Positions 3,859-22,575 are shown, counted from the stretch's first letter. The stretch is DNA of 32,000 nucleotides from Candidatus Nanoarchaeia archaeon (GCA_028279745.1 JANQNC010000001.1:1050001-1082000); one strand, 5' to 3'. A program made the numbers and translations. The notes: generated by a model not told the origin, from the letters alone.

Positions 3859-3902
3859 TTCTGTTAGAATAAATAAAAAAAGAAAAAATAAAGAAAAAGG
3901 AA

Positions 3903-4694: not shown

Positions 4695-4979
4695 CTATTT
4701 CTTTTTCTTAGAAATTTTTTTCTCTAAATCTTTCAGATCTTTCTTAGTTGCCAAAGGAGAAGACTTCATAGCTTTTTTGACCTGTTCTTCAACACTCTTC
4801 TGAATCTTTTTTTGTGTACGTAAGGATTCAGAAACTATGTCATTAACAAGCTTCTTCCCTTCTTTTTCATTCAAGTAACCTTTCTTCTTTAAGTCTTTTA
4901 CAAGACTGTTGGCTTTGTCACGGGTTATAGCGCCAAGGCCCAACCCAAACAAAATTGTTTTTTTTAAGATATCTTTCAC
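4695..4979 (-). CDS. phasin-like (COG3937-type) small helical protein
   Basis: FGLGLGAITRDKANSLVKDLKKKGYLNEKEGKKLVNDIV resembles the phasin-family regulator fold. I place the start at GTG 4979, 8 nt after AGAGG of an AGAGGTGAT SD. The track start GTG 4988 overlaps the ubiB stop. Confidence 0.4.
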   Translation of the reverse strand: MKDILKKTILFGLGLGAITRDKANSLVKDLKKKGYLNEKEGKKLVNDIVSESLRTQKKIQKSVEEQVKKAMKSSPLATKKDLKDLEKKISKKKK

Positions 4980-4984
4980 CCAAA

Positions 4985-6685
4985 TCACCTCTTATTTTTT
5001 TCTCTTAAATCTGATCTAACCTCTTCTGAAAGCATAGTCCTTTTCAGGAGCCAAATTGAAAGTAATATAGCAACGCTGAACCCTGCTACAGGTATAATCG
5101 GGATTCCTTGGTATATAAAGGTTGTGTCAACCTGCATAACCAGGGCGGAACCAACTATCAATGCAGCAATAATCATACCAACACTGACATTACCTGAACT
5201 TCTCTCAAGCTCAGCAGTCATATTTTTAATGTCAGAATCTTCTAAATCAATGTTAATGTTGCCTTTTCTTAACCGGTCTAGTATTTCTAAGCTGCTTTTT
5301 GGAAGTACAGATAAAAGTTCTTTGTAAGTAGATGCAGCCTTTAATGCAGACTTCTTGATCTGTTGAGGATAGAACTTTTTTCTAAGGATTTTCTTCAGAA
5401 GAGGCTTGGTTTGTTCAACCAGCTTAAAATCAGGATTATATCTGACGCCAATACCTTCCAAAGTTATAACTGTCTTGCCAAATAGAACAAAGTCAAGAGG
5501 AAGTTGTATCTTGTATTGTAAAGCAAGATCCATAACTTGTTCAAGAACTATGCTGACCTCCACATCTTTCAGAGAGGAATACTGGAGATTACCAATTAGT
5601 ACTGTCAGATCTCTCTTGAAAGCTCTTGCATCAAATTCTTTTTCATCAACAGCACCTAAACTCAAGAAAGTTCTAACTAGCTTATCAACTTCTTTGTTAG
5701 CGACAGCCATAAAGATATCTAAAGATTTATTTCTTAGGTCATCATCAAATTTACCTACAATGCCGAAATCAACAAAACCTATCTTTTTACCTTTTGTCAA
5801 GAAAATGTTTGCAGGATGGGGATCCGCATGGAAAAAACCATGCTCAAAAATCATAGTTATCACATTAGCGTACACTTTGTCTATAACTTTTATGTAGCCA
5901 CCAGCAGATCGTTTTACTTTGTTAAACTGATTCAGAGGAGTTCCATCAATAAAATCAGTAGTCAAGACTTTTTCGGTAGTAAATTCTGAGTATACTTCGG
6001 GAATGTACACGTCTTTATTTTTTTCAAAGTTTTTCTTGATGGTTTTTGCATTCAAAGATTCAATCTTATAATTTAATTCATCGTGGGTGTAACGCTCAAA
6101 CTCTTGCACAACACTTATAAGATCATAGTTAGCCAGCTCTTTGACATGCTTTTGTAATAGCTGAGCGACATGATACAGAATTTCAATATCTGTATCAATA
6201 ACTTTTCGTATATCTGGTCTTTGAACCTTAACCGCAACAACTTTTCCATCTTTTAGTTTAGCTTTATGAACTTGGCCCAAAGAAGCAGCAGCCAAAGGTT
6301 TTGTATCAAAAGATTTGAAAGCTTTACTTAATGGTTGGTGAAGCTCAGACTCAACAATCTTTTTTACATCTTTAAAAGGAAAGCTAGGGACTTTATCCTG
6401 CATCTTTTCAAACTCAAAGATGTACTCTTTAGGAACTAAATCAGGTCTTAAGCTTAGTAGTTGGCCTAACTTAACAAAAGTAGGACCTAGTTTTTCAAAT
6501 GCTCTTCTTAGGTGAACAGAAGGATGATATCTATGTTCAAACTTCTTAGCAAACCTTTTTGTGAGAGGCAAATGTTTCATCAGCTTAGACCTTTCAAACA
6601 GATAACCAAAACCTTCCTCAAAGAAGATTAATAGAATTTTTCTTAATCTATTGATGTCTCTTACCTCTTTTCTAATGTTAAACAT
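4985..6685 (-). CDS. ubiB: ABC1/UbiB-family atypical protein kinase
   Basis: AAASLGQVHKAKLKDGKVVAVKVQRP, FFHADPHPANIF and VDFGIVG motifs. Two C-terminal TM helices. SD GAGG lies 6 nt upstream. Confidence 0.9.
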   Translation of the reverse strand: MFNIRKEVRDINRLRKILLIFFEEGFGYLFERSKLMKHLPLTKRFAKKFEHRYHPSVHLRRAFEKLGPTFVKLGQLLSLRPDLVPKEYIFEFEKMQDKVPSFPFKDVKKIVESELHQPLSKAFKSFDTKPLAAASLGQVHKAKLKDGKVVAVKVQRPDIRKVIDTDIEILYHVAQLLQKHVKELANYDLISVVQEFERYTHDELNYKIESLNAKTIKKNFEKNKDVYIPEVYSEFTTEKVLTTDFIDGTPLNQFNKVKRSAGGYIKVIDKVYANVITMIFEHGFFHADPHPANIFLTKGKKIGFVDFGIVGKFDDDLRNKSLDIFMAVANKEVDKLVRTFLSLGAVDEKEFDARAFKRDLTVLIGNLQYSSLKDVEVSIVLEQVMDLALQYKIQLPLDFVLFGKTVITLEGIGVRYNPDFKLVEQTKPLLKKILRKKFYPQQIKKSALKAASTYKELLSVLPKSSLEILDRLRKGNINIDLEDSDIKNMTAELERSSGNVSVGMIIAALIVGSALVMQVDTTFIYQGIPIIPVAGFSVAILLSIWLLKRTMLSEEVRSDLREKNKR

Positions 6686-6749
6686 TATGCACCTCTTTTT
6701 ATGTAAAAATCAGTTTTTCTTTATATAAATGTTGTGATAGAAATATAAT

Positions 6750-6797
6750 AAAAAAAAGAAAAAGTGCTCAAAAATTTTTGGCACACCTTTACAGGTG
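6750..6797 (-). terminator. short hairpin plus oligo-T tract downstream of 6800-7084
   Basis: CACCT/AGGTG stem at 6784-6797. On the minus strand it is followed by T5-G-T8 (plus-strand A-runs at 6750-6763). Confidence 0.4.
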
Positions 6798-6799
6798 GA

Positions 6800-7084
6800 T
6801 TAAAGTTTCATCAAAGCGAAACCTGCAATTAGTAGGGTGAGTATCCACCAAGATAACCCTGTCATAACGCCTGTTGCATTAAGAGCACATACAACACCAA
6901 TTATGAATAAAAGTCTTCCAAAGAATCCTCCGCCGCTTTCACAACAACTTTTGGACTCAAAATGCTTAGCCCAAGACTTACAACTCTTATCGTCTTTAGA
7001 ACACATCTCTATCTTTTTCCCAATAGATTTACCAATCTCATCCCAAGAAGGGTCAGCTTTCTTTTTCTTTTTTCTTGCAACCAT
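6800..7084 (-). CDS. small Cys-containing membrane protein, unknown function
   Basis: Strong SD GAGAGGTGAT 7 nt upstream, overlapping the end of the Nudix gene. Basic N-terminus and two C-terminal TM helices. Confidence 0.6.
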   Translation of the reverse strand: MVARKKKKKADPSWDEIGKSIGKKIEMCSKDDKSCKSWAKHFESKSCCESGGGFFGRLLFIIGVVCALNATGVMTGLSWWILTLLIAGFALMKL

Positions 7085-7088
7085 CTTA

Positions 7089-7559
7089 TCACCTCTCTGA
7101 TACTTTAAGACTATGATCTAAAAGTGTCTTGTCCTCAGCATATATAAACTTTGCCTTGACATACTTACCTTCAATAACGTGAGGCATCCAGTGTTGATCG
7201 GCTTCCCACATCTTATCATAAGGAACATTTGTTAAAGGAAATACTTCGGGCTTCATCTCTTTAGTCTCTTTTGGAATGCCTTCCCATCGAGCAACTTCAT
7301 AAACATGCATCACCTGGTCCCATGCAGAATTATGGGGAAAGATAAAAGTGATTTCTCCAACTTTGGTCATGTATTGTTCTGATGTTTTTACCTCGCTTTC
7401 TTCTTTAAGTTCTCTAATTGCAGTATGGATAATACTTTTATCATGGTTTTTTGGCTTGCCACCAAAACCATTGTAATTACCTGCACCAAAACCTTCTTTT
7501 TTCATCCCAAGAACTAGTTCAGTTTCATTTAGTAAAAGACAAAGTGTAACATCTCGCAT
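7089..7559 (-). CDS. Nudix hydrolase, MTH1/NUDT1-like 8-oxo-dGTPase
   Basis: LGMKKEGFGAGNYNGFGGK plus Nudix box GGKPKNHDKSIIHTAIRELKEESEV, and the C-terminal PYDKMWEADQHWMP. These parallel human MTH1 (LGMKKRGFGAGRWNGFGGK ... FKDMWPDDSYWFP) as I recall it. Confidence 0.8.
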   Translation of the reverse strand: MRDVTLCLLLNETELVLGMKKEGFGAGNYNGFGGKPKNHDKSIIHTAIRELKEESEVKTSEQYMTKVGEITFIFPHNSAWDQVMHVYEVARWEGIPKETKEMKPEVFPLTNVPYDKMWEADQHWMPHVIEGKYVKAKFIYAEDKTLLDHSLKVSER

Positions 7560-7615
7560 AGTTTCACATAAGATTTGTTGTTAGAATATATAATAGTTCT
7601 GAATCGGTTCTTTAA

Positions 7616-7963
7616 TCATTTATAACAGCTACTGCACTCAGCTTTTTTATCGATCAGCTTTAATAATTTTACAATTTGTTTTTCATCAACATCTTTTAAT
7701 TCTTTAAACTTCAGATGCATCATAGTCTTGCCAGTTCCTTTAAAGTTTTCCTTGTCTTTCTTTGTCAAACCTTTAACTGAAAATCCCAGGTTTACGCTAT
7801 CTTTTAGGCCAACAACATAATATTTGCCATACCAAGCAACACCTAACTTCTTTTGTTCATTTATTTTAGGAATTGTTTTAAGAATTATTTTTCTTAACTT
7901 CTTGCAAATCTCTTTCTGAGGAGATTTCTGCTTTTCGATATATTCTGAGACTTCTTTGTTCAT
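7616..7963 (-). CDS. DUF1801 (YdhG-like) domain protein
   Basis: I place the start at ATG 7963 (MNKEVSEYIEKQKSPQKEICKKLRKIILKTIP...). The longer track ORF to 8062 runs through the tRNA gene. Confidence 0.6.
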   Translation of the reverse strand: MNKEVSEYIEKQKSPQKEICKKLRKIILKTIPKINEQKKLGVAWYGKYYVVGLKDSVNLGFSVKGLTKKDKENFKGTGKTMMHLKFKELKDVDEKQIVKLLKLIDKKAECSSCYK

Positions 7964-7977
7964 TCTACAATAAAAAT

Positions 7978-8096
7978 AGCCCCGCGCGGACATTCGGTAA
8001 AGCTGCGCCTTTCCGGGCGTCAAAGCCAGCTTTGACATTCGAACCGCGGTCCAAAGACCCAAAATCTCCGATGATTGGCCACTACACCACGGGGCT
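7978..8096 (-). tRNA. tRNA-Gln (anticodon UUG at 8062-8060) with a 47-nt bulge-helix-bulge intron in the T-loop (about 7990-8036)
   Basis: Acceptor AGCCCCG/CGGGGCT. Anticodon arm GGAGA-TTTTGGG-TCTTT. T-stem CGCGG/CCGCG. T-loop TTCGAAT is restored after removing the 47 nt. The BHB is described under findings. Confidence 0.8.
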
Positions 8097-8123
8097 GTAT
8101 AAGCTTAAAATGTTTCGAGGTAT

Positions 8124-8131
8124 TTTATAAA
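8124..8131 (-). promoter_or_regulatory. TATA box for tRNA-Gln
   Basis: TTTATAAA lies 28 nt upstream of the tRNA 5' end. Confidence 0.55.
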
Positions 8132-8203
8132 TCTTGTTGTTTTTGATGATTAACTACACAATGGGTAAAAAAGTTTTTAAATGCAGGAACTAAAAATAGA
8201 TGT

Positions 8204-8794
8204 ATGAAGCCAAAACTGGCAAGAAACGAGTTGAGAAGAAACATATTCCATATATTGTTGGGAGTAATTATAGTTGCATTCATCAACTTATATCCTGAAA
8301 GGGTATCGCTACTGGTTCTTGCCATAATCCTAATTTTGGGATTATTTATCTCATTGTTAAGCAGAGTGGTTTCAATACCTGTGGTAAAGTGGTTCTTGAA
8401 AACATTTGACAGAGAAGAGGATATGAAGAAATTTCCTGGTAAAGGAGCATTATTTTTCTTCTTGGGATCAGTAACAGCACTTTACCTATACGGGGTGCAG
8501 ATTGCGTCAGCGGCAATACTGATACTTGCAGTCGGAGACTCAATTAATCTATTGGTCGGAAAACCATTTGGTAGAGTTGTAAATCCCCTAGATACAAAAA
8601 AGATGTTTGAAGGAAGCATAGCAGGATTTGTAGCAGGATTTATAGTGGCTTCATTATTTGTTCCACTAATATATGCAATAATTGCATCTGCAGTAGCAAT
8701 GCTTGTAGAGATGATAGACTTCAAAGAGATGCAAGTGAATGATAATATATTGATACCTTTATTTTCGGGATTGGTATTGTGGTTACTTCTTTAA
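8204..8794 (+). CDS. CTP-dependent polyprenol/dolichol kinase family membrane protein (CdsA/Sec59 superfamily)
   Basis: Multi-TM protein. GDSINLLVGKPFGR...KKMFEGSIAGFVAGF matches the family signature. TATA-like TTTTTAAA lies 23 nt upstream (leaderless). Confidence 0.55.
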   Translation: MKPKLARNELRRNIFHILLGVIIVAFINLYPERVSLLVLAIILILGLFISLLSRVVSIPVVKWFLKTFDREEDMKKFPGKGALFFFLGSVTALYLYGVQIASAAILILAVGDSINLLVGKPFGRVVNPLDTKKMFEGSIAGFVAGFIVASLFVPLIYAIIASAVAMLVEMIDFKEMQVNDNILIPLFSGLVLWLLL

Positions 8795-8842
8795 TAAGAA
8801 TACAATATATTTTTATAGGACTGTCCGATCCGTTTCACTAAT

Positions 8843-10090
8843 ATGAATATTTCAGTGATTGGTTTAGGGTATGTGGGGTTTCCGTTAGCATTGCAGGCTG
8901 CAAGTAAAGGACACAATGTGGTGGGAGTGGAGAAAAATCTCGGCATAATATATACTGTGAACAAAGGAGAAACCCATTTGGATGAAGAGTTTATCCATGA
9001 TCTGTTGAGCAATACAAAGATACAAGCACAAGACAAAGTAGAAAATTCTGATGCATACATAATATGTGTGCCAACACCAGTGACAAAAACAAAACTGCCA
9101 GATTTGGGTCTTGTAAAAAAAGCAACAGAAGAAGTTGCAGAAATAATTCAAGATAATCAGTTAGTAGTTATAGAATCAACAATATACCCTGGAGTTTGTG
9201 AAGAAATAGTAAAACCAATCTTAGACAAGACAGGAAAAAAGTATCTTTTAGCACACTGCCCTGAAAGGATCAATCCAGGAGATAAAAAATGGAATGTTGG
9301 AAACATACCTAGAGTTGTCGGGGGGTTGGATAACGAATCAACAGAAAAAGCAAAAAGATTATACGAATCAATAATAGACGCAGAAATTGTGGGTGTGTCA
9401 CAGATTAAAGCAGCAGAAGCAACAAAGATTTTAGAAAACACATTCAGAGATGTGAATATAGCATTTGTGAATGAGATGGCGCAATCATTCTATAGGATGG
9501 GAATAGACTTTGCAGAAGTCATAAAAGGATCATCAACAAAACCATTTGGATTTATGGCACACTATCCTGGGGTTGGGGTGGGCGGGCATTGTATAGCTGT
9601 AGACCCATACTACATGATAGAAAAAGGAAAAGCATCAGGATTTGATCACGAATTTTTGACACTGGCGAGAAAAATTAATTCAAACATGCCAATCTACACT
9701 GTGAAGCTTATACAAAATGAGCTAAATGAGCTAGAGCTACCCATAAAAGGAACAAAAATAGGAATTTATGGATTATCATACAAACCAGATGTAGCAGATG
9801 AAAGAGAGTCGCCTTCATATAATGTAATAAAAAGACTTAGAAATCGGTCTGCAGACCTAGTGATCTATGATCCTTACATGAAAAACGAATCAGATGTTGA
9901 GGGGTTAAATGAATTTTTTAAAGAAGCAGAATGCATTGTTGTATGTACTGCACACTCAGAGATAAAAAATATTGATTATGATATTCTAAAAAAGAATAAT
10001 GTTAAGTTAGTAGTGGATGGGCGAAACTGTCTTAACAAAGAAGAGATAAACAAATTAGGAATAAGATATGTTGGTGTAGGAAGGAAGTAA
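8843..10090 (+). CDS. nucleotide-sugar dehydrogenase (UDP-glucose/GDP-mannose dehydrogenase family, WecC/Cap5O-like)
   Basis: Rossmann N-terminus ISVIGLGYVGFPLA, AAEATKILENTFRDVNIA, catalytic GGHCIAVDPYY, and YKPDVADERESPS. Confidence 0.85.
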   Translation: MNISVIGLGYVGFPLALQAASKGHNVVGVEKNLGIIYTVNKGETHLDEEFIHDLLSNTKIQAQDKVENSDAYIICVPTPVTKTKLPDLGLVKKATEEVAEIIQDNQLVVIESTIYPGVCEEIVKPILDKTGKKYLLAHCPERINPGDKKWNVGNIPRVVGGLDNESTEKAKRLYESIIDAEIVGVSQIKAAEATKILENTFRDVNIAFVNEMAQSFYRMGIDFAEVIKGSSTKPFGFMAHYPGVGVGGHCIAVDPYYMIEKGKASGFDHEFLTLARKINSNMPIYTVKLIQNELNELELPIKGTKIGIYGLSYKPDVADERESPSYNVIKRLRNRSADLVIYDPYMKNESDVEGLNEFFKEAECIVVCTAHSEIKNIDYDILKKNNVKLVVDGRNCLNKEEINKLGIRYVGVGRK

Positions 10091-10097
10091 TTCTCAC

Positions 10098-10111
10098 AAA
10101 ACATTTATAAA
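10098..10111 (+). promoter_or_regulatory. BRE/TATA promoter for tRNA-Val
   Basis: AAAACATTTATAAA ends 26 nt upstream of the tRNA 5' end. Confidence 0.6.
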
Positions 10112-10136
10112 AGAAACTAACGTAGTTATTGTAAAG

Positions 10137-10237
10137 GGGCCCGTGATCTAGTGGCTATGATGCTTCCTTGACGTGGAAGATATCCCCAGTTCAAATCAAT
10201 TGACTGTTAAGTCAGCAGTGAAAGTCTGGGCGGGCCC
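10137..10237 (+). tRNA. tRNA-Val (anticodon GAC at 10170-10172) with a 29-nt bulge-helix-bulge intron in the T-loop (about 10197-10225)
   Basis: Acceptor GGGCCCG/CGGGCCC. Anticodon arm CTTCC-TTGACGT-GGAAG. T-stem CCCAG/CTGGG. T-loop TTCAAAT is restored after excision. Confidence 0.8.
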
Positions 10238-10256
10238 ATTACAGCTGGTTGATAAA

Positions 10257-11321
10257 ATGGCAACAAATAACAAAAACTATCTATTCTTGATCTTCATAGC
10301 ACTATTTTTTGTGCTATCATACATGTTAGTGAAACCATTCATAAGCGCATTAGTGGGTGCAATAGTTGTAACATATGTTCTTTATCCAATCTATAACTGG
10401 TTATACACTAAAACACGAAAACCAAACTTGACGGCAACCGTCATGATAATCGCGATTTTGTTGATAATCACCGTGCCGTTTGTTTTAGTCAGTAACCTAA
10501 TAATAACTGAATCAACAAACCTTTACGAAATAATAGAACAAGGTAATTTTGGAGAAGAATTTTTCTCAACAAACTCAACATGTACTGAAGGATTGATGTG
10601 TACGGGAGCAATGTTCATCAACGAAAAAGCATCAGACCCTTTTGTTGTAGAAAATTTTACAGAGGTTGCCAAAAATTTGATATCCTTACTTTTCCAAAAA
10701 GGATCAACATTCTTATTATCATTACCTGAAAGAGTACTTTTCCTATTCATACTTTTATTCACAAGCTTTTACCTGTTTAAAGAAGGACCAAAAGTTGTAG
10801 AGTTCATAAAAAAACTTATGCCATTAGGAGAGAAGAATAAAAACAGAATAATGAACAAACTGCAAGAGGTAGTTTATGCAACAATCTATGGTGCAGTTGT
10901 AATAGCGATATTCCAAGGATCAATAGCGGGGATAGGATACTTCTTATTTGGTATAACTAACTACGCGACACTTGCAATACTGACTATGATGGCTTCTCTA
11001 CTTCCGTTTGTGGGAACAGGACTTGTGTGGGTTCCAGTATCCATATACTTAGCTGCGCAAGGAATATTATTGTCTAACAATTCATTAGTTTGGAGGGGAG
11101 TGGGATTATTCTTGTTTGGCGCATTAATAGTTGCAACCATAGACAACCTGATAAGACCAAAAGTTGTAGGTGATAGAGCAAAAGTAAACCCAGTCATAAT
11201 CCTTTTAGGAGCATTTGGAGGGTTGAGGTTGTTTGGATTCTTTGGAATCTTTGTAGGTCCTGTAATTCTAGTCATACTGTTAACACTTCTAGAGATCTAC
11301 CTTGAGGCAAAGAAAAGATGA
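10257..11321 (+). CDS. AI-2E/PerM (UPF0118) family membrane transporter
   Basis: I place the start at ATG 10257 (MATNNKNYLF...); the track start at 10173 lies inside the tRNA. LPFVGTGLVWVPVSIYL and DNLIRPKVVGDRAKVNPVIILLGAFGG motifs. Confidence 0.8.
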   Translation: MATNNKNYLFLIFIALFFVLSYMLVKPFISALVGAIVVTYVLYPIYNWLYTKTRKPNLTATVMIIAILLIITVPFVLVSNLIITESTNLYEIIEQGNFGEEFFSTNSTCTEGLMCTGAMFINEKASDPFVVENFTEVAKNLISLLFQKGSTFLLSLPERVLFLFILLFTSFYLFKEGPKVVEFIKKLMPLGEKNKNRIMNKLQEVVYATIYGAVVIAIFQGSIAGIGYFLFGITNYATLAILTMMASLLPFVGTGLVWVPVSIYLAAQGILLSNNSLVWRGVGLFLFGALIVATIDNLIRPKVVGDRAKVNPVIILLGAFGGLRLFGFFGIFVGPVILVILLTLLEIYLEAKKR

Positions 11322-12814
11322 AACTAGTCGTAAAGGACATCGACATTGAAGCAGGAAGATTTCTCATAGCATTACTAAACCAAGAAGATGCAAGAAAATT
11401 AGATCTGCATCATGGTGACAGAGTTAAGATAAAAAAAGGAAACAAAGAGACGGTTGCATTCATAGACATATCAACAAACCCAGAAAAATTGGGGTTGGGA
11501 GAGATAGGATTCTTTGAAGAATTACTTAATGAGATGAAAGTCAAAGAAGGCGATGTGGTTGATATGGTAGTTGCGCAAAAACCCCAATCAGTAGGCTGCA
11601 TAAGGAGAAAGATGGAAGGCAGAGTGCTTAACTATGAAGACACAAAAAGAGTTGTAGAAGACATAATAGGAAATAAACTATCAGATGTAGAACTAACATA
11701 CTTTGTAGCAAGCACGTATGCAAGGGGGATGTCGCTGGAGGAAATTACTGCACTTACGAGAGCGATGATAGAAACAGGAGACAAAGTAGAGCTAGATACA
11801 CATCCCATAATGGACAAACATTGTATAGGGGGAGTTCCTGGGAACAGAACAACACCCCTGGTAGTTCCAATACTTGCAGCTGCGGGACTGACAATACCAA
11901 AAACAAGTTCAAGAGCAATTACAAGTCCGTCAGGAACGGCAGACACACTTGAAGTTTTGATGACAACAAACGTTACCAAAGATAAAATGATAAAAGTTGT
12001 CAACAAGACAAATGGGTGTATGGTGTGGGGTGGAGGAATGATAAATCTTTCACCTGCAGATGATAGGATAGTCGTTATAGAACACTCGCTTGGAATAGAT
12101 GCAGAAGGACAGATGCTGGCAAGCATATTGGCAAAAAAATTATCTGTATCTGCAACAGATATCTTGATAGACATACCTGTGGGCAGAGGAGCAAAAGTAG
12201 AGAGTAAAGAAAAAGCATTACACATAAAAAATTCTTTTGAGAAAATTGCAAAAGTGTTTAACGTAAAAACAAAAGTGATCATAACAGACGGCAACCAACC
12301 GATAGGCAATGGGATAGGGCCCATGTTGGAAGCAAAAGATGTACTTTATGTTCTTATGAACGATAAAAGAGCGCCAAAAGACCTGGAAGAAAAAGGAATT
12401 GCGATGGCAGGACTACTTTTAGAGATGGGTGGTAAGGCAGCAAAAGGAGAAGGAAAGAAAAAAGCACTAAGCATACTAAGAAGCGGTGAAGCTTTAGCAA
12501 AATTCAAAGAGATAGCACAATCACAAGGCAAAGCAGAACTAGATCCTGAAAAACTAGTCGAAGCAGAGTTCAAATATGAGTTTAGAGCAGAAAGAGAAGG
12601 GAAAGTTACAAGAATAGATAACAAAGCGATATCAAGAGTGGCAAGAATTGCGGGAGCGCCACATAACAAAAAAGCAGGAGTGATGCTGCATAGAAAAGTA
12701 GGTGATGTGGTGTTGAAAAATCAACCACTATTCACAATATACTCAGAATCAGCAACAAAACTACAATATGCATATGAAGAATTTGAAAGAATAGATGGTT
12801 TTGTTGTAAACTAA
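11318..12814 (+). CDS. deoA: AMP phosphorylase (archaeal thymidine-phosphorylase-family enzyme with N-terminal extension)
   Basis: MKLVVKDIDIEAGRFLIALLNQEDARKL N-domain, DKHCIGGVPGNRTT, and TSSRAITSPSGTADTLE. ATGA overlap with the upstream gene. Confidence 0.85.
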   Translation: MKLVVKDIDIEAGRFLIALLNQEDARKLDLHHGDRVKIKKGNKETVAFIDISTNPEKLGLGEIGFFEELLNEMKVKEGDVVDMVVAQKPQSVGCIRRKMEGRVLNYEDTKRVVEDIIGNKLSDVELTYFVASTYARGMSLEEITALTRAMIETGDKVELDTHPIMDKHCIGGVPGNRTTPLVVPILAAAGLTIPKTSSRAITSPSGTADTLEVLMTTNVTKDKMIKVVNKTNGCMVWGGGMINLSPADDRIVVIEHSLGIDAEGQMLASILAKKLSVSATDILIDIPVGRGAKVESKEKALHIKNSFEKIAKVFNVKTKVIITDGNQPIGNGIGPMLEAKDVLYVLMNDKRAPKDLEEKGIAMAGLLLEMGGKAAKGEGKKKALSILRSGEALAKFKEIAQSQGKAELDPEKLVEAEFKYEFRAEREGKVTRIDNKAISRVARIAGAPHNKKAGVMLHRKVGDVVLKNQPLFTIYSESATKLQYAYEEFERIDGFVVN

Positions 12815-14802
12815 TTCTTTGGCAGCTTATATTTGAAATCTTCAATAGGGTAAGGTTTATGGATATCTTTCATGAACTGAGCCCAGATAGGAAGTGCTGC
12901 TTTAGCACCAGTCTCTTTATTACCGATAGAAGTTCTATCATCTAGGCCCACCCAAACACCTGTCGTGTATTGAGGTGTAAAGCCGATAAACCAAGCGTCT
13001 TTACAATCATTAGTTGTACCTGTCTTGCCGCCTGCAGGTCTTGTGAAACCATACCATTTAGCACCTCTTCCAGTGCCGTCTTGGATTACAGATTCTAAAA
13101 TCTCAACAACTTTATATGCTGCGTCAGGATTAAGAGCTGTTCTTTCTTTAGGCTCGTGTTCAACAATCAGCTCTTTCCCATCCCGCAGTATTACTTTGTT
13201 TATCATGAAAGGTTCTCTGTAAATTCCGTCGTTAGCGAAAACAGAATAAACAGAAGTCATCTCTAAAGGAGTAGCATCAAAAGCACCAATCGCTAAAGAA
13301 GGGTAAGGTCTCATCTTAGACTTAACACCTAACATCTTAGCATATGTGATAACATTATCTAACCCAATATCTTTACCAAGAAGAATTGTTGGAATGTTTC
13401 TTGAATGCTTACAAGTCTCCTTTAAGGAAACTGGCCCGATATAATCTGGCTTGTAATTTTTAGGTATCCAGATGTTATTAAGATCATCTTTGTAGACAAA
13501 AGGGATGTCCATCAACATAGACTCGACTTCGTAACCATTATCAAGAGCTGCTGCATAAACAACAGGCTTAAATGAAGAACCTGGGCTTCTCATAGCTTGA
13601 ACTGCTCTGTTGAACTTGCTTTCGCTAAAGTCTCTACCTCCGACCATTGCAACAATTGCGCCATCTGAATTGTCAATGCTAACTAAAGCAGCCTGAACTT
13701 TTTTATCTGTACCTTTGAAGTTTTTCTGTTTCCTGTCTAGTATTTTCTTAACATAATGTTCAGCAATCTTTTGAAATTCAAAGTTAAGAGTGGTATAAAT
13801 ATTGTAACCCTTCGAGTAAAAATCTTTATAGCTGATTATCTTTGGACTTAGTGTTTTCCTAACTTCTTCAATAAAGTAAGCACCGACCCCGCTGTTTTCT
13901 GTAAGCGTAACTTTGGGGATGTTTTCTTTTTTGAGAGAGTCATAATCTTCTTTTGAGATCTTTTTATCTTTTAACATTTTCCAAAGGACTATGTTTTTTC
14001 TTTTGTTTGCCCTTTTTGGGTGCAAGTCTGGTCTGTACCTTTCAGGAGACTGGATCATCCCTGCAAGCAAAGCGCATTCAACTTGAGAAAGCTCACCAAG
14101 ATTTTTTCTGAAATATTTTTTTGATGCTGCCTTGATGCCATAAACACCGCTGCCTAAATATGCCTGGTTAAGATAAAGCTCAAGAATCTTATCTTTATCA
14201 TATCTGTTCTCAAGCCTTACTGCAGTAATGCCTTCTTTGATCTTACGGCTAATGGATTTTTCATTTCCAACAAAAAGGTTCTTAGCTAGTTGTTGTGTTA
14301 TTCCGCTGCCACCTCTGCTAAAACCAGAAAGTATTGCGTTAGCTAATCCTCCATAGTTAACTCCGTTGTGTTCTCTGAACTGAGCATCTTCAGTTGCAAT
14401 AACTGCTTTAATGAGATCTTGAGGCATACTATCAATAGGAGCAAGCTCTCTGTTTTCGATAAAGTGTTCCTCAATCAGCTGATTATCTGAAGAATAAACT
14501 CTTGTAACTGCTCCCTGTTTGATGTTATCAATCTGTGAAGGGGTGGGTAAAGAAGGTATGAGGCTTGCAATGTATAGGGAGCCTCCAACTAGTGTTCCAA
14601 TAAAACCTCTTTTGATCCATTTTAGAGCATTACGCTTTTTGTCAGATGATGGAAGTGTTACAGATTGTTTTGGTGTTTCAACTATTGTTTCTAAATCTTC
14701 TAGCTCTGGTTCAATTTTGGGTGTTGGAACTACCTCTTTTTGCTTTTTATCATCAGAACCCATGCCTGGAGGGGTTAGATCACTATCAAAATCACGAGCC
14801 AT
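12811..14802 (-). CDS. ponA: class A penicillin-binding protein (GT51 glycosyltransferase plus transpeptidase), bacterial type
   Basis: GT51 motifs EDAQFREHNG, GGSGITQQ, RKIKE and KDKILELYLN. Transpeptidase motifs SPGSSFK, SRN and KTGT. One N-terminal TM helix. Confidence 0.9.
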   Translation of the reverse strand: MARDFDSDLTPPGMGSDDKKQKEVVPTPKIEPELEDLETIVETPKQSVTLPSSDKKRNALKWIKRGFIGTLVGGSLYIASLIPSLPTPSQIDNIKQGAVTRVYSSDNQLIEEHFIENRELAPIDSMPQDLIKAVIATEDAQFREHNGVNYGGLANAILSGFSRGGSGITQQLAKNLFVGNEKSISRKIKEGITAVRLENRYDKDKILELYLNQAYLGSGVYGIKAASKKYFRKNLGELSQVECALLAGMIQSPERYRPDLHPKRANKRKNIVLWKMLKDKKISKEDYDSLKKENIPKVTLTENSGVGAYFIEEVRKTLSPKIISYKDFYSKGYNIYTTLNFEFQKIAEHYVKKILDRKQKNFKGTDKKVQAALVSIDNSDGAIVAMVGGRDFSESKFNRAVQAMRSPGSSFKPVVYAAALDNGYEVESMLMDIPFVYKDDLNNIWIPKNYKPDYIGPVSLKETCKHSRNIPTILLGKDIGLDNVITYAKMLGVKSKMRPYPSLAIGAFDATPLEMTSVYSVFANDGIYREPFMINKVILRDGKELIVEHEPKERTALNPDAAYKVVEILESVIQDGTGRGAKWYGFTRPAGGKTGTTNDCKDAWFIGFTPQYTTGVWVGLDDRTSIGNKETGAKAALPIWAQFMKDIHKPYPIEDFKYKLPKN

Positions 14803-14827
14803 TTTAAGGTTGATGAATGAATGACCC

Positions 14828-14841
14828 TTTATAAATGTTTC
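14828..14841 (-). promoter_or_regulatory. BRE/TATA promoter for the PBP gene (leaderless)
   Basis: Reverse strand reads GAAACATTTATAAA, ending 25 nt upstream of ATG 14802. Confidence 0.55.
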
Positions 14842-14880
14842 TATATTTAACTACTAACTAGTCGTAACAAAATAGAAAGA

Positions 14881-14888
14881 TTTAAATA
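14881..14888 (+). promoter_or_regulatory. TATA box for 14914 gene (leaderless)
   Basis: TTTAAATA lies 25 nt upstream of the ATG. Confidence 0.5.
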
Positions 14889-14913
14889 GTGCTATTTTAT
14901 ACGCTTTTACAGT

Positions 14914-15942
14914 ATGAAGAAAGCGATCGTATTAGGAACAGTGTTGACGGCAGCACTTCTAAGCCATGTTATGAAACCGCAGATAAGAGAATTTGTTCAA
15001 GGGGTTAGAAGCGAGAAGGTTGTTCAAACTGTACCAGAAAAAAAAGAAGTTAAAACAAAAAATGAAGAAAAAGTCTATGCTGAGCAGGCAGAGAAAAAAT
15101 TCTTACTTCCTGAAAACAAAACATTAACCCCTTACTTAATGGATGACAAAGAGGAGATCGATACCTTGATCCAAATGGCAGAACACGATCTTAAACTGAT
15201 CAGATGGAATTATGGCTATGATGACGTTCATATGTTCGGAGTTCCAAAAAGAGACGCTAATGGAATGAACATGAAACAGGACACAAGGGGATTCACAAAA
15301 GACAGGAAGAGAAAAGAACTTGTACAGTTCAAAAATGATCTTATGCAAAGAAAATATGAACTTGACAGAGAAAGTCTGGCTGGGCTAGAACAAGGATATC
15401 AAAAAATAAACCTTCTTGATTACAACAGGATACTAGAACGGGATGGTATGAAATCTGATGGGCTTGTTGAATTGGCAAGAAAACTTGTAGACACTAAAGT
15501 GAATAAGATATACCTTAAAGATGACGGAGAAAAGAAGATAGCTGTTTTACACTGGGACAAGAATAAATCATTAGTTCTGAAGGATATCAAAGTAAGTCTA
15601 GAAGCAAAAACACAGTTGATGGCAGGAAAAGCATACTTAGAAATGAATGGAAAAAGCGAGAACTATTTTGGAGCATTACACATATCAGAAAACCAATACA
15701 GATGCATGGAAGAGCTGGCAAGAGACAGAAATGACATAGCGGCTTATGGTGTGTTTGGAATGATAAATTCTAAACTGACAATTCCTTTTGGAGCATTTAT
15801 ATCGGTAAACGATATAAGAGGTGAGGGTGTAAAAGTGATAAGAGCAGGTAAAGGTCAAGAAACCGTAATGGCAGATCTGCCTTCAGAAGCGATGAAAGTA
15901 CTAAAAGATTATCATGCTGCAACTAGAGATGTTTGCAACTAA
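14914..15942 (+). CDS. membrane-anchored or secreted protein, unknown function
   Basis: N-terminal hydrophobic helix MKKAIVLGTVLTAALLSHV. I recognise no motif. Transcribed divergently from the PBP gene. Confidence 0.5.
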   Translation: MKKAIVLGTVLTAALLSHVMKPQIREFVQGVRSEKVVQTVPEKKEVKTKNEEKVYAEQAEKKFLLPENKTLTPYLMDDKEEIDTLIQMAEHDLKLIRWNYGYDDVHMFGVPKRDANGMNMKQDTRGFTKDRKRKELVQFKNDLMQRKYELDRESLAGLEQGYQKINLLDYNRILERDGMKSDGLVELARKLVDTKVNKIYLKDDGEKKIAVLHWDKNKSLVLKDIKVSLEAKTQLMAGKAYLEMNGKSENYFGALHISENQYRCMEELARDRNDIAAYGVFGMINSKLTIPFGAFISVNDIRGEGVKVIRAGKGQETVMADLPSEAMKVLKDYHAATRDVCN

Positions 15943-15975
15943 ATCTAGTTAGTTATTCTATCAATTTTTATACCG

Positions 15976-15987
15976 TAACATTTAAAT
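15976..15987 (+). promoter_or_regulatory. BRE/TATA promoter for ppsA
   Basis: AACATTTAAATA, identical to the core upstream of the histone gene. SD AGAGGTG follows. Confidence 0.5.
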
Positions 15988-16027
15988 ACTACCCAAATCA
16001 GTTTTAATAGTAAAAAGAGGTGTTAGA

Positions 16028-18433
16028 TTGGATAAGGAACATGAATTTATTCTATGGTTTGACCAGCTGGCAATAGAAGATGTGCCGTACGTTGGAGGAA
16101 AAAACGCATCATTAGGAGAGATGTATAGAATATTAACTCCTAAAGGTGTTAAAGTCCCTAATGGATTTGCAGTTACAGCTTACGCTTACAGATACTTTGT
16201 AGAAAAAGCAGGAATAAAAGACAAGATAAAAGAGATCCTTTCAGATCTAGACACGTCAAACATGGAAAACTTATCCGAACGAGGACACAAAGTAAGAACA
16301 TTGATCAGAAATGCAGAGTTCCCGCAAGAGCTTAAAGATGTTATTGTTGAAGCTTATGGAAAGATGTGTGAAGAGTATGGAGAAAATACAGACACAGCAG
16401 TAAGAAGTTCAGCGACAGCAGAAGACTTACCGGATGCAAGCTTTGCAGGACAACAAGAAACATACCTTAATGTTAGAGGAGAATATCACCTGATGACTGC
16501 ATGCAAAAACTGTTTTGCATCACTATTCACCAACAGAGCAATTTCTTATAGAGTAGACAAAGGCTTTGACCATTTTTCGATTGCACTATCAATTGGAGTA
16601 CAGAAAATGGTCAGAAGTGATATGTCATGTTCAGGAGTAATGTTCTCAATAGACACAGAATCAGGATTCAAAGACGCAGCATTCATAACAGGTGCATGGG
16701 GATTAGGAGAAAATGTTGTACAAGGAGCAGTAAACCCTGATGAGTTCTATGTTTTTAAACCAACATTGAAAGAAGGCAAAAGACCTATAATAAGCAAAAA
16801 AGTAGGGCAGAAACACATAAAGATGGTCTATGCGGAAGATGGCGGGCAAGCAACTAAAAATATAGACACTCCAGAAGAAGACAGAAAAAAGTTTGTAATA
16901 AGTGATGATGAAATTTTGAAACTTGCAGAATGGGCATGTATAATAGAAGATCACTATTCAGAAAAAGCAGGAAAATTCAAACCGATGGATATGGAATGGG
17001 CAAAAGATGGACAGACAGGAGAGCTGTTTATAGTTCAAGCAAGACCAGAAACAGTGGCATCACAGAAAAATGCAAATGTGCTAGAAAAATATGTGCTAAA
17101 AGAAGAAGGAAAAGTGATAGCTACCGGACAAGGTGTAGGAGAAAAGATAGGACAAGGCCCTGTAAATGTAATCAAAGATGTTCATGATATAGGCAATTTC
17201 AAAGAGGGAGAGGTGTTGGTTACAGAGATGACAGACCCAGACTGGGAACCGATAATGAAAATAGCTTCTGCAATCGTTACTAACCGTGGCGGGAGAACTT
17301 GTCACGCGGCAATAATCTCAAGAGAGTTGGGAATTCCATGTGTAGTAGGAACGAACAACGGAACTGAAGTGATAGAGAATGGAAAGAAGGTAACAGTAAG
17401 TTGTGCAGAGGGAGAAGAAGGACATGTGTATGAAGGAAACTTAAAGTTCGAAGTAGAAAAATTAGATTTACAAACAGTTCCTGAAACAAAAACAAAAGTT
17501 ATGATGAACATAGGGAATCCTGATCAAGCATTTTCAGCAAGTTTCTTACCAAATGATGGAGTGGGTTTAGCTAGAGAAGAGTTTGTTATCAATTCTTACA
17601 TTGGGATTCATCCAAGAGCACTTATCGAGTATGATAATTTAGAAGATTCAGAAGTTAAGAAACAAATTGATGAAAGAACTTATGGATACGAAGACAAAAA
17701 AGAGTTCTTCGTCGATAAACTAAGCCAAGGAGTTGGAAGAATTGCGGCAGCATTCTATCCAAAAGATGTTATTGTTAGATGTTCAGACTTTAAGAGTAAT
17801 GAATATGCAAACCTGCTTGGAGGAAAAGCATTTGAACCAAACGAAGACAACCCGATGATAGGGTGGAGAGGTTCTAGCCGTTATTATGATGATAAATACA
17901 AGGAAGCATTTGCACTAGAGTGCACAGCACTTAAGAAAGTAAGAGAAGATATGGGTCTTACAAACTTGAAAATAATGGTTCCATTCTGCAGAACAGTAGA
18001 AGAAGGAAAAGCTGTACTTGCAGAGATGGAGAAAAATGGTTTGAAGAGAGGAGAAAACGATCTACAAGTTTATGTAATGTGCGAGATACCTTCAAACGTG
18101 TTACTAGCAGACCAGTTCTGCGAAATATTTGATGGATTCTCAATTGGAAGTAATGACCTGACGCAGTTAACACTTGGTCTTGATAGAGATTCTGAGTTAG
18201 TTGCACACATATTTGACGAAAGAAACGAAGCAGTAAAAAGATTGGTTAGTCAGGTAATAAAGGTAGCAAAAGAAAAAGGCAAAAAAATAGGGATATGTGG
18301 AGACGCACCTAGCACTTATCCAGAATTTGCACAATTCTTGGTAGAAGAAGGAATAGATTCATTAGGTTTGACACCTGATGTAATTGTCAAGACAAGACTT
18401 AACGTTGCAGAAACTGAGAAAAAGAAGAAGTGA
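16028..18433 (+). CDS. ppsA: phosphoenolpyruvate synthase
   Basis: TTG start 7 nt after GAGG. VGGKNASLGEM, phospho-His motif GGRTCHAAIISRELGIPCVVG, and the C-terminal PEP-utilising domain FSIGSNDLTQL. Confidence 0.95.
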   Translation: MDKEHEFILWFDQLAIEDVPYVGGKNASLGEMYRILTPKGVKVPNGFAVTAYAYRYFVEKAGIKDKIKEILSDLDTSNMENLSERGHKVRTLIRNAEFPQELKDVIVEAYGKMCEEYGENTDTAVRSSATAEDLPDASFAGQQETYLNVRGEYHLMTACKNCFASLFTNRAISYRVDKGFDHFSIALSIGVQKMVRSDMSCSGVMFSIDTESGFKDAAFITGAWGLGENVVQGAVNPDEFYVFKPTLKEGKRPIISKKVGQKHIKMVYAEDGGQATKNIDTPEEDRKKFVISDDEILKLAEWACIIEDHYSEKAGKFKPMDMEWAKDGQTGELFIVQARPETVASQKNANVLEKYVLKEEGKVIATGQGVGEKIGQGPVNVIKDVHDIGNFKEGEVLVTEMTDPDWEPIMKIASAIVTNRGGRTCHAAIISRELGIPCVVGTNNGTEVIENGKKVTVSCAEGEEGHVYEGNLKFEVEKLDLQTVPETKTKVMMNIGNPDQAFSASFLPNDGVGLAREEFVINSYIGIHPRALIEYDNLEDSEVKKQIDERTYGYEDKKEFFVDKLSQGVGRIAAAFYPKDVIVRCSDFKSNEYANLLGGKAFEPNEDNPMIGWRGSSRYYDDKYKEAFALECTALKKVREDMGLTNLKIMVPFCRTVEEGKAVLAEMEKNGLKRGENDLQVYVMCEIPSNVLLADQFCEIFDGFSIGSNDLTQLTLGLDRDSELVAHIFDERNEAVKRLVSQVIKVAKEKGKKIGICGDAPSTYPEFAQFLVEEGIDSLGLTPDVIVKTRLNVAETEKKKK

Positions 18434-18670
18434 TTATTCTAACATGTTGGTTATGGCTATTTCCATTAGCCTGTAATCTGTTTCATCTACGTATTCGTTG
18501 ACTCCATAGACGAAACTACGAACTTTATTCTTGGCTTTCTGAAAATAGTGAGAAGCTAAGGGTACAGATAAGCTAGCTGAGTACGCAAGGGCTGCACAGC
18601 AGATAAGGAGAGGTTCTTTGTTCTGCTTTATGAGTTCAGGTGTTTTTGCTATAATTTCAAGTTCGGGCAT
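18434..18670 (-). CDS. hypothetical 78-aa protein
   Basis: ORF only. A TATA-like CTTAAATA lies about 27 nt upstream. No recognisable motif. Confidence 0.3.
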   Translation of the reverse strand: MPELEIIAKTPELIKQNKEPLLICCAALAYSASLSVPLASHYFQKAKNKVRSFVYGVNEYVDETDYRLMEIAITNMLE

Positions 18671-18810
18671 TTTTTTGTTTTTGGGGTGGTGACTAGTATT
18701 TAAGAATATTTGATGATGCTTACTATAACCTCTGCACAGTAGTAAAAATAGAAAAGTTTATAAAGAAAAGACCATTCACTAATCAGATATTTGGTAAGAA
18801 AGGTATGCAA

Positions 18811-20287
<1,477 letters not shown>

Positions 20288-20529: not shown

Positions 20530-22575
20530 GTGTACAACCAAAATAACAATTACAAAACAAACGGATTTTCTTTTAGGAGATTATTAGGAGCAGCAGCAAT
20601 TTCGCTAATGCTTTACACTGGAGTAAGGGCTGCAGAAAAACCTGCAGGATTCAGTATGGAAGCAGGATCATCAAAAAAGAAAGTGATGCTGGTTCCAGAT
20701 GTAGAACCAGAACCTGTGGATCTACAAAAAATATTGGAGGACAGTTCAGATGTTGAACCGGAACCAAGTGCTGCACCAGCACCTGCACCTGCGGTAAAAC
20801 CTAAACCTAAAAAAGACCATCTTACACCAAACGAGCCAGTGCAGTACACAAACAAGATAACTTCTGAAACATATCAAAAAATGAAAAAGCTGGCTGAAAA
20901 GGATAACCGATTAGGATTGATAAGATTAATAGATGTACAATCAGGAGACAGAAAACTAGAATCAATAATGTATTCAGAAAAAGGAAAAGCAATACAGCTA
21001 AACCTTTACAACGACAAGAATGAATACAAACAAAGAGAGATAAGGTTAAATGATTATCTGATGGCGGATGTAAAAAAGTATGAAGAGTTAGCAGCAAAAT
21101 TAAAAGAAGAAGAGCCAAAATCTGAACCGCCAAAGAAAGAAAAGAAAAAGAAGAAAAAAGGACCAAGTTTGTTTGGAAAACTAATAAAGAACATAGCAAA
21201 CAGGCTAACTTTAGATGGTTCATCAAGAAACTATCTTTCTGATGGAGACAATTTCAGCACAGACAACAATTTAGGAGCTAGTATATTTGATTTTACAAAA
21301 ATAAACTTTAACGTAGGGAAAACAGGATATGGGAAAGACGAAGTATTCCAAGGATCAATTAACGATGTGGATTATTCACAAGAAGATAATACTGTGATGA
21401 GTTCATTTAACCTTGGGGGTGGATTATTGTTGACGCCTGAAGCATCAGAAATACTTCTAGCATTCCAAAGAGTTACAGACAAAATGGATATAAACTCAGT
21501 ATACAATGAAGACGTATCAATATCAGAGGTAGTAAGTGGAGAATTGTACAATGCACTGATCCATACAAATCAGCTAGACAGCATAAAGATAAAAAATAAA
21601 ACAGACTTATTGAGAGCAGGAGTTGCAAGAACAATCTTCGGTAACTCACTAAAGCTAGGGTTATACGGGCATTACATGAAGAATAATTCACAAAGCAACA
21701 CTTCAATGAGAGAATATGAAAGTGGTATAGAATCATTGACTTATGATTCAACAATGTCAAACGGGTTTGATACGACTTTATTCATATTCAACGATACAAT
21801 ACCTGCAACACTAACGGACTCAAAAGATGAAGAGATAAGATCAGAACAAAAAATAATAACTGGAATGCCTTCCGTATTCTGGAACTGGGGACCACTAGTT
21901 CTTGGAGGAGCAGGAATCTACTCATCAATAAAAGAGATAAGAGACACAGTAGGTGTTGGAGACATAAAGACAAGCAGCAACTACAAAGCAGGATCAGTTA
22001 ATTTTGGGATACAATTCTGGAAACTATTCTCAAGCTCGTTCTTCGGAGCAAGCTCAGACTTTGAAAACCTGAGAGTGTCACAAACATTCTACCTATCAGA
22101 TGAGAAACCAGGGCACATAGTAACTGAAAAAATATCAGGAATACAAAGCAACCTGATGATGAACGATCTTGAAAGAATGTTGGCAGCAGCAACATCACAA
22201 AAACAATTGGGACAGTTAGGGGTAGGAATGCATCCATTATCAATCATAGACCAATATGGGTTGATGAGAGATTTACCTGACTTTAACCAGTTAACATTAG
22301 ACTATGAAAAAGTAGATAGATTCGATCTAGAAGGAGAGATAATGAGAGTGGCTGCAGCACTTAAGCTAGTAGACAAAGGAAATAAAGCTGCAAGCTTTGT
22401 TGCAGAAGGAAGCAAAATACATGTAACAGGAGATCCAGACGATCTTTACTCAATGCTGGCAGGAATCATGGGGAAATTTGGAAGCTGGTATGTTATGCCA
22501 GTACTAAAGATCAACATGAAAGGAGATGAAAGCGTAGCATCCGCAGGATTAACCGTAGGATTAAAAGCAAGATAG
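20530..22575 (+). CDS. secreted or anchored protein: signal-like helix, Pro-rich and Lys-rich linkers, large beta-rich C-terminal domain
   Basis: GTG start 8 nt after AGGGGG. N-terminus is FRRLLGAAAISLMLYTGVRA. Linkers are EPEPSAAPAPAPAVKPKPKK and KKEKKKKKKG. The C-terminal approximately 470 aa show alternating-hydrophobic strand patterns. Confidence 0.6.
   Translation: MYNQNNNYKTNGFSFRRLLGAAAISLMLYTGVRAAEKPAGFSMEAGSSKKKVMLVPDVEPEPVDLQKILEDSSDVEPEPSAAPAPAPAVKPKPKKDHLTPNEPVQYTNKITSETYQKMKKLAEKDNRLGLIRLIDVQSGDRKLESIMYSEKGKAIQLNLYNDKNEYKQREIRLNDYLMADVKKYEELAAKLKEEEPKSEPPKKEKKKKKKGPSLFGKLIKNIANRLTLDGSSRNYLSDGDNFSTDNNLGASIFDFTKINFNVGKTGYGKDEVFQGSINDVDYSQEDNTVMSSFNLGGGLLLTPEASEILLAFQRVTDKMDINSVYNEDVSISEVVSGELYNALIHTNQLDSIKIKNKTDLLRAGVARTIFGNSLKLGLYGHYMKNNSQSNTSMREYESGIESLTYDSTMSNGFDTTLFIFNDTIPATLTDSKDEEIRSEQKIITGMPSVFWNWGPLVLGGAGIYSSIKEIRDTVGVGDIKTSSNYKAGSVNFGIQFWKLFSSSFFGASSDFENLRVSQTFYLSDEKPGHIVTEKISGIQSNLMMNDLERMLAAATSQKQLGQLGVGMHPLSIIDQYGLMRDLPDFNQLTLDYEKVDRFDLEGEIMRVAAALKLVDKGNKAASFVAEGSKIHVTGDPDDLYSMLAGIMGKFGSWYVMPVLKINMKGDESVASAGLTVGLKAR

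Follow-up and report, generated by a model that had tools for sequence, protein, structure and literature searches.

A class A penicillin-binding protein gene in an archaeal genome

The subject of this study is a class A penicillin-binding protein (PBP), an enzyme type that combines a murein glycosyltransferase (GT) with a transpeptidase (TP), whose gene lies in a 32,000-nucleotide (nt) stretch of the genome of Candidatus Nanoarchaeia archaeon (GCA_028279745.1, JANQNC010000001.1:1050001-1082000). This whole stretch is referred to as the window, and positions are counted from its first letter. The PBP gene occupies exactly positions 12811-14802 on the minus strand, starts with ATG and encodes 663 amino acids (aa). 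It is flanked by the convergent AMP phosphorylase gene (11318-12814, plus strand; TIGR03327, 572 bits vs. a cut-off of 535) and, in divergent orientation, by an orphan gene for a 342-aa protein with an N-terminal hydrophobic signal or anchor sequence (14914-15942, plus strand). A PEP synthase gene follows on the orphan-gene side (16028-18433, plus strand; TIGR01418, 1235 bits) and, like the AMP phosphorylase gene, served as a syntenic anchor in the comparisons described below.

Based on the length of the open reading frame (ORF), searches with hidden Markov models and an AlphaFold2 (AF2) model, the protein represents a short PBP1A form without the OB/ODD insert. It scored 582.2 bits against TIGR02074 (PBP_1a_fam; curated cut-off 508.75), with model positions 1-534 of 535 aligned. 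The GT51 peptidoglycan glycosyltransferase domain (aa 115-276; 13975-14460, minus strand; Pfam PF00912 Transgly, 4.6e-57) carries the motifs EDAQFREHNG at residue 138, GGSGITQQ at 164, RKIKE at 186 and KDKILELYLN at 203, as well as a fifth motif, RKNIVL at 268, which goes beyond the four quoted in a preliminary description of the window. According to the motif positions, the catalytic glutamates are Glu138 and Glu190. The acyl-serine transpeptidase domain (aa 373-644; 12871-13686, minus strand; Pfam PF00905 Transpeptidase, 2.5e-32) contains SxxK (Ser409-S-F-Lys412), SxN (Ser467-Arg-Asn469) and KTG (Lys593-Thr-Gly595), and the columns of these three motifs are invariant across a 39-sequence alignment. 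Every motif on which the preliminary description had based its claim of an intact class A PBP was thus recovered. No SLT/GH23 domain was found by Pfam in the 663-aa protein, which contains the GT51 and transpeptidase domains only.

The predicted cytoplasmic N-terminal tail (aa 1-65; 14608-14802, minus strand) is disordered and rich in proline, lysine and acidic residues. Its length differs among the relatives introduced below, from ~10 aa in contig L019 to ~150 aa in contig L018. It is followed by a single predicted membrane anchor at approximately aa 66-88 (14539-14607, minus strand), with the top-scoring Kyte-Doolittle 19-mer at aa 67. The basic cluster KKRNALKWIKR directly precedes the anchor, for which the positive-inside rule predicts an N-in orientation, and an AF2 helix spanning aa 53-84 overlaps it. 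At the level of prediction, the protein hence has the normal bitopic topology that had been proposed for it.

Structural modeling, which the preliminary description had recommended, yielded a confident AF2 model (built on 39 sequences) with a mean predicted local distance difference test score (pLDDT) of 86.7; disorder was confined to the first 52 residues, where pLDDT was <50. The modeled fold is that of solved class A PBPs. The top Foldseek match was E. coli PBP1b (5hlb; E = 8e-42, template modeling (TM) score 0.63), 5u2g also reached a TM score of 0.63, and further best fold matches in the PDB were class A PBPs of H. influenzae, A. baumannii and S. aureus (TM ~0.6). A phmmer comparison with P. 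aeruginosa PBP1a (4oon) gave 7.7e-110. The protein remained below the cut-offs of the more narrowly defined equivalog families, namely E. coli MrcA (NF008643; 360 vs. 1263), PBP1B (TIGR02071; 417.5 vs. 717.75) and PBP1C (TIGR02073; 322.4 vs. 494.2). It lacks the UB2H domain and has no PF17092 (OB/ODD) match between the GT and TP domains, and its alignments to PDB structures skip the OB/ODD insert. Judging from these profile matches and the modeled fold, the ORF at 12811-14802 is a genuine and intact bacterial-type class A PBP that is apparently catalytically complete. It is, by the same evidence, a known family turning up in an unexpected domain of life.

Promoter, nucleotide composition and gene junctions

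A BRE/TATA-like element (GAAACATTTATAAA; 14828-14841, minus strand) ends 25 nt before the ATG of the PBP gene and has the layout of a leaderless-type promoter, as had been noted before. No Shine-Dalgarno sequence was found upstream of this ATG. The divergent orphan gene has its own putative TATA box (TTTAAATA; 14881-14888, plus strand), which also ends 25 nt before the start codon. A strict TATA 8-mer ends 21-28 nt before the start codon in seven of the 24 window genes, including these two, compared to a background density of 0.0023 per intergenic nt. This spacing is therefore a feature of how promoters are laid out in this genome and no coincidence. Gene starts in the window fall into two groups: leaderless starts with the TATA element 21-28 nt upstream, and leadered starts with a GAGGTG-type ribosome-binding site and the TATA element at ~36-40 nt.

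The GC content of the PBP gene (0.383) and its GC content at third codon positions (0.307) are within the range of the window, and its codon score is typical of the remaining minus-strand window genes. The match in composition and codon style that had been claimed between the PBP gene and its neighbors was thereby borne out. All minus-strand genes (3903-8062, 12811-14802 and 28241-29488) score lower on the window-pooled codon usage, and GC/AT skew flips with gene strand across the window. The lower codon score of the minus-strand genes is a strand-linked bias and not a sign of foreign origin.

At the distal end of the PBP gene, its stop codon interlocks with that of the AMP phosphorylase gene in the 4-nt overlap that had been reported: CTAA at 12811-12814 provides TAA for AMP phosphorylase on the plus strand and TAG for the PBP on the minus strand. 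In agreement with the preliminary description, no insertion sequences, integrase genes or flanking repeats were detected within positions 10000-18500. The exact PBP protein is recorded on a 1,301,350-bp NCBI contig, and window positions 2930-17507 (14.6 kb), a region that spans both PBP junctions, recur with 100% identity on a Logan contig assembled independently (SRR20820740). As far as sequence alone can tell, these matches show that the PBP locus is not an assembly artefact.

The same locus in related archaea

The nearest named relatives of the AMP phosphorylase encoded in the window belong to Woesearchaeota/Nanoarchaeota and share at most 62% identity with it; therefore, the host probably represents a poorly sampled lineage of DPANN. 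It appears to be a Woesearchaeota-like archaeon.

Related loci were found on contigs from two other samples, with L016 and L019 stemming from one sample (JGI 3300035659) and L018 from another (ERZ27248074). On contig L016, which encodes the closest AMP phosphorylase (62%), a gene for a 198-aa membrane protein (71%) is followed by a tRNA-Val gene whose T-loop contains an intron, and then by the AI-2E transporter and AMP phosphorylase genes. Downstream of the latter, and convergent to it, are an 87-aa gene and the transpeptidase part of a PBP that runs off the contig, is 50% identical to the window protein and retains SxxK, SRN and KTG. The transpeptidase motifs are retained in the archaeal relatives P0242 and P0243. 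Contig L019 contains the GT51 part of a PBP (45% identical, with all five motifs), a homologue of the orphan protein (32%) and a PEP synthase gene with an intein. On contig L018, an N-terminal PBP fragment occurs together with an orphan homologue (34%) and a PEP synthase fragment (83%). The PBP parts of L016 and L019 could not be joined into a single gene, as the contigs end without overlap; a short linker piece is therefore missing.

The orphan gene was co-conserved with the PBP. Its product had just three homologues among 1.84 billion representatives, two of which are encoded on contigs that also bear a PBP fragment (adjacent to it in L018, and separated from it by three small genes in L019), while the third is located on a 698-bp contig. 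No match to Pfam, NCBIfam or PDB folds was obtained for the orphan protein, and its AF2 model had a pLDDT of 70. The co-conservation suggests that the orphan protein is functionally linked to the PBP, and we consider it a candidate partner or regulator.

Some features of these loci differ from the window. In L019 (1062-2811, minus strand), the PBP ends a run of overlapping genes and follows genes for 223-aa and 331-aa proteins, both of which consist of tandem ~48-aa repeats with an HTH_17 motif (AEYAGVSQxTVxNYWKK) and are absent from the window. The PEP synthase intein in L019 (4186-7786) contains a LAGLIDADG domain, whereas the window copy at 16028-18433 is free of an intein. A free-standing LAGLIDADG gene is located ~8 kb to the left of the window (contig L021, 1352-2083).

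Phylogeny and evolutionary constraint

Separate phylogenies of the two catalytic domains, as called for in the preliminary description, were calculated by neighbor joining (NJ). In the TP tree, the window protein clustered with P0242 and P0243 (bootstrap 97/100), and in the GT51 tree it clustered with the L019 protein (72/100), so that archaeal copies grouped together in each. The archaeal PBPs also have the derived substitutions Q406S, R461K, L464C/F and L497M/I in common. All remaining relatives among 5.8 billion protein clusters look bacterial, with identities of 42-44% over the full length and at most 51% over shorter stretches. The best partial hit, P0002 (51% identity over 45% of the query), was evaluated as a second archaeal copy and was discarded, as it lies in a bacterial context, among genes for GidA, MnmE, FtsX, SurA and DNA polymerase III delta'.

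In the TP tree, the neighbor group of the archaeal PBPs consisted of P0002, P0016 and P0048, the last from a metagenome-assembled genome (MAG) of Fibrobacterales. A grouping of the archaeal PBPs with these three sequences received 0/100 support in the GT tree, and for this reason we do not claim a donor. The L019 PBP has a segment in the linker between its GT and TP domains (residues ~316-355, containing IPLDKVITNMDSIYHEYKK) which by eye resembles that of a bacterial subgroup including P0016 and P0048, although it was not placed by the automatic alignment; no such segment is present in the window PBP. The likeness of the linkers is a possible hint to the bacterial donor that the GT-domain tree does not support.

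Of the 121 alignment columns with at least 90% conservation among bacterial homologues, the window PBP keeps 113, a value within the span of the bacterial proteins themselves, and the residues that differ are replaced conservatively. The available pairs share 50-69% protein identity, at which synonymous sites would be saturated. Its catalytic motifs are retained in at least three divergent archaeal copies. Judging from this conservation, the PBP is under purifying selection. Taken at the level of sequence comparison, the data demonstrate that an ancestor of a small Woesearchaeota-like clade acquired the PBP from a bacterium and that the gene has since been inherited vertically at one chromosomal site. 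As its upstream element and composition document, the gene is now furnished with a putative archaeal TATA/leaderless promoter and host-like codon usage.

Archaeal markers and other genes of the window

The window encodes several archaeal markers on both sides of the PBP gene. These are diphthine synthase Dph5, a marker of archaea and eukaryotes (3115-3858, plus strand; TIGR00522, 306.6 bits vs. a cut-off of 114.3), peptidyl-tRNA hydrolase Pth2 of the archaeal type (30456-30800, plus strand; NF003314, 151.9 bits vs. 126), a 69-aa archaeal histone (30987-31196, plus strand; Pfam Histone and CBFD_NFYB_HMF on the Logan gene call, and translation) and a Nip7-like PUA protein. A gene for the Rpr2 subunit of RNase P lies just beyond the window edge in the Logan flank.

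Two tRNA genes were recognized by ARAGORN after in-silico splicing: tRNA-Val(GAC) with a T-loop intron of ~28 nt, an archaeal hallmark (10137-10238, plus strand), and tRNA-Gln(TTG) with a T-loop intron of ~47 nt (7977-8096, minus strand). Neither was called in ARAGORN and Rfam scans of the unspliced sequence because each carries such an intron. The tRNA-Val gene is located 2.6 kb from the PBP gene and has a counterpart in L016 (~1788-1960), whose intron is longer and sits in the identical place. As a consequence of the overlooked tRNAs, the predicted ORFs at 7616-8062 and 10173-11321 are over-extended at their 5' ends.

The preliminary description had held that the PBP gene is native to this genome and represents neither contamination nor a fresh insertion. 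The archaeal markers on both sides, the identical Logan contig, the recurrence of the locus and the clustering of the archaeal PBPs all agree with this view.

Further window genes are of bacterial type, including those for a UbiB/ABC1 kinase, the AI-2E transporter and PEP synthase, which fits the hybrid gene content described for DPANN. At 18805-20287, a gene for a stand-alone response-regulator receiver domain overlaps the 5' end of a GAPDH gene of bacterial type (type I). Three consecutive large genes at 20530-27571 (681, 1098 and 556 aa) have Big and CARDB domains or no family match, and probably encode surface or S-layer-type proteins. The 196-aa polytopic membrane protein encoded at 8204-8794, which is 71% conserved in L016 (952-1548), had no family match; by eye, its motifs GDS..LVGKPFG and EGS.AGF recall polyprenol/dolichol kinase-type enzymes.

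Substrate and possible function of the archaeal PBP

Textbooks list the lack of murein among the features that set Archaea apart from Bacteria, and our literature searches found no report of a PBP in DPANN archaea. What the locus demonstrates, as far as motifs, trees and predicted signals can tell, is a bacterial class A PBP that has stayed under constraint in a clade of archaea and has the features required for its expression and export there.

We propose that the protein inserts N-in via its one membrane helix, which would place both catalytic domains outside the cell. There, the membrane-proximal GT51 domain (Glu138 and Glu190) would polymerize a polyprenyl-pyrophosphate-linked disaccharide-peptide of the lipid II type, and Ser409 of the distal domain would attack stem peptides ending in D-Ala-D-Ala, either cross-linking or trimming them. 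The outcome would be an at least local peptidoglycan-like polymer. In this mechanism the lipid II-type substrate would have to sit in the membrane that holds the PBP anchor, which is the archaeon's own, and the precursor might be made by the archaeon or be taken up with membrane lipids from a bacterial partner. In the structures of PBP1b and PBP2, GT51 domains are partly located in the outer leaflet beside their own anchor. This mode of action within the own membrane, and the retention of both Glu motifs in lineages that are 45% identical, argue for a lipid II-type substrate in the archaeal membrane. Across 1,644 CAZy genomes, the presence of GT51 was correlated with that of peptidoglycan (r = 0.963), and GT51 occurred in none of the 101 archaeal genomes included in this 2012 survey (PMC3541169). 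Taken jointly, acquisition from a bacterium, vertical inheritance and polymerization of a lipid II-type precursor in the archaeon's own membrane make up the account that we hold, with some reservation, to be probable.

Several points weigh against this account. To our knowledge, no archaeon makes lipid II. The 32-kb window and its flanks (~23 kb of Logan contigs) together cover ~55 kb of the 1.30-Mb genome, and in this region no gene for murA-F, ddl, mraY, murG, murJ, ftsW/rodA or a class B PBP was found. In the related genome GCA_028279685.1, HypA is encoded in place of the PBP at this site, so that even close relatives do not all carry the gene. Both trees were built by NJ from single domains and with limited sampling. 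Finally, the metabolic surveys of Woesearchaeota that we found by searching report peptidoglycan-degrading enzymes only (PMC8204110, PMC9723730).

A more far-reaching version, which we rate as rather unlikely, is that archaea of this clade produce genuine peptidoglycan from lipid II, be it a sacculus or a patch at the division or contact site, with the orphan protein as a new PBP partner. These organisms would then be the first archaea with murein, and the precursor would be supplied either by a bacterial host or by a Mur pathway that was gained by horizontal transfer and lies in another part of the genome.

The main rival to polymerization in the archaeon's own membrane is a role directed at a partner, which we consider unlikely to be the correct explanation, if less so than the alternatives that follow. 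According to this scenario the archaeon has no peptidoglycan of its own, and the surface-exposed PBP binds, trims or cross-links the stem peptides in the wall of a bacterial host at the contact site, where it would serve attachment or the remodeling of that wall, with the GT51 domain acting mainly as a scaffold or glycan-binding module. The membrane-distal position of the TP domain in the AF2 model and the lack of lipid II genes in the ~55 kb around the PBP are in line with such a function. So are the large extracellular lytic murein transglycosylases of Woesearchaeota and Pacearchaeota, two groups for which episymbiosis with bacteria or predation on them has been proposed (PMC8204110, PMC9723730). 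However, the five GT51 motifs and both catalytic glutamates are kept in two lineages that are 45% identical, which is hard to square with a mere scaffold. Nor is the locus accompanied by a gene for a lytic transglycosylase or an adhesin. Moreover, from what is known of PBP structure, lipid II in the membrane of another cell is out of reach for a GT51 domain tethered to the archaeal membrane.

The remaining explanations rank lower. A changed substrate appears improbable: the PBP would here polymerize or cross-link a non-murein archaeal lipid-linked glycan, such as a dolichol-pyrophosphate GlcNAc oligosaccharide, or a glycoprotein peptide. Archaeal dolichol-linked GlcNAc glycans and MraY/MurG-like enzymes are generally known to exist, the neighboring orphan gene is specific to the clade, and the clade shares four derived substitutions in the TP domain, with Q406S directly before SxxK. 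Nevertheless, the protein retains 93% of the residues that bacterial PBPs conserve, the changes are conservative and the active-site motifs are unaltered. Less probable still is that a transferred bacterial gene persists as a functionless passenger that is tolerated, unused and heading for decay. The missing gene at the syntenic site of one related genome would fit this explanation, as would the divergence of the PBP (45-50% identity), which exceeds that of AMP phosphorylase (62%), the membrane protein (71%) and PEP synthase (83%, in L018). In contrast, the 663-aa frame is intact, at least three divergent copies preserve all motifs, the degree of conservation does not leave the range of bacterial homologues and the AF2 model has high confidence; the gene also has an archaeal-type promoter and host-like composition, and its position was conserved through long divergence. 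The idea that a bacterial fragment entered an archaeal contig through chimeric assembly or contaminated binning is highly improbable: raised solely since all non-archaeal relatives are bacterial, it found no support and is refuted, as far as sequence alone permits, by the identity of the Logan contig across both junctions, the stop codons interlocked with the archaeal AMP phosphorylase, the recurrence of the gene order in contigs from two other samples, and the composition and promoter that match the host.

The retention of intact GT51 and transpeptidase domains at one locus through deep divergence implies that a substrate for the enzyme is available to the cells. One possibility is that a murein-type polymer is built by some archaea, as would follow from polymerization of a lipid II-type precursor in their own membrane; the other is that a synthetic enzyme acts on the wall of a bacterial partner. 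Both would be new for DPANN symbiosis. Beta-lactams and moenomycin could then affect some archaea. With its conserved site, this PBP makes the building or handling of peptidoglycan by archaea a testable question.

Comparison with known systems

In its two-domain architecture, its anchor and its eight motifs, the window PBP resembles the short-form bacterial PBP1A proteins (TIGR02074) from MAGs of Nitrospirota, Latescibacteria, Fibrobacterales and Desulfobacteraceae, and it has the fold in common with the solved P. aeruginosa PBP1a (4oon) and E. coli PBP1b (5hlb). It lacks both the OB/ODD insert found in PBP1a of E. coli, Pseudomonas and Acinetobacter and the UB2H domain of PBP1b. Unlike the bacterial short-form proteins, it has an archaeal host, a TATA/leaderless-type promoter and the clade substitutions Q406S, R461K, L464C/F and L497M/I. 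The orphan gene beside the archaeal PBP was not seen beside bacterial homologues.

Photosynthetic eukaryotes (Micromonas and the moss plastid PBP) offer a precedent for a bacterial peptidoglycan synthase that is functional after moving into another domain of life, with class A PBP/GT51 genes retained outside Bacteria. Micromonas encodes GT28, GT51 and GH103 (PMC3541169). The eukaryotic genes arrived with an endosymbiont, which also brought the lipid II pathway, and their products act at the envelope of the plastid, whereas the archaeon has no endosymbiont and a companion pathway was not seen in the ~55 kb.

Within the same archaeal group, the GH23 proteins of Woesearchaeota and Pacearchaeota are likewise exported and related to bacterial peptidoglycan, and their presence has been read as evidence that these archaea interact with bacteria (PMC8204110, PMC9723730). 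These proteins are very large, have an unrelated fold and degrade peptidoglycan, while the window PBP combines a synthetic GT51 with a transpeptidase domain. The sole archaeal wall polymer that resembles murein is the pseudomurein of Methanobacteriales and Methanopyrales, whose synthesis shares a distant ancestry of Mur ligases, MraY and MurG with that of murein; in the organisms that make it, orthologues of transglycosylases or transpeptidases were scarcely, if at all, in evidence (PMC10117817). Compared to these pseudomurein makers, the window gene encodes a true bacterial PBP, and it does so in an unrelated archaeal lineage.

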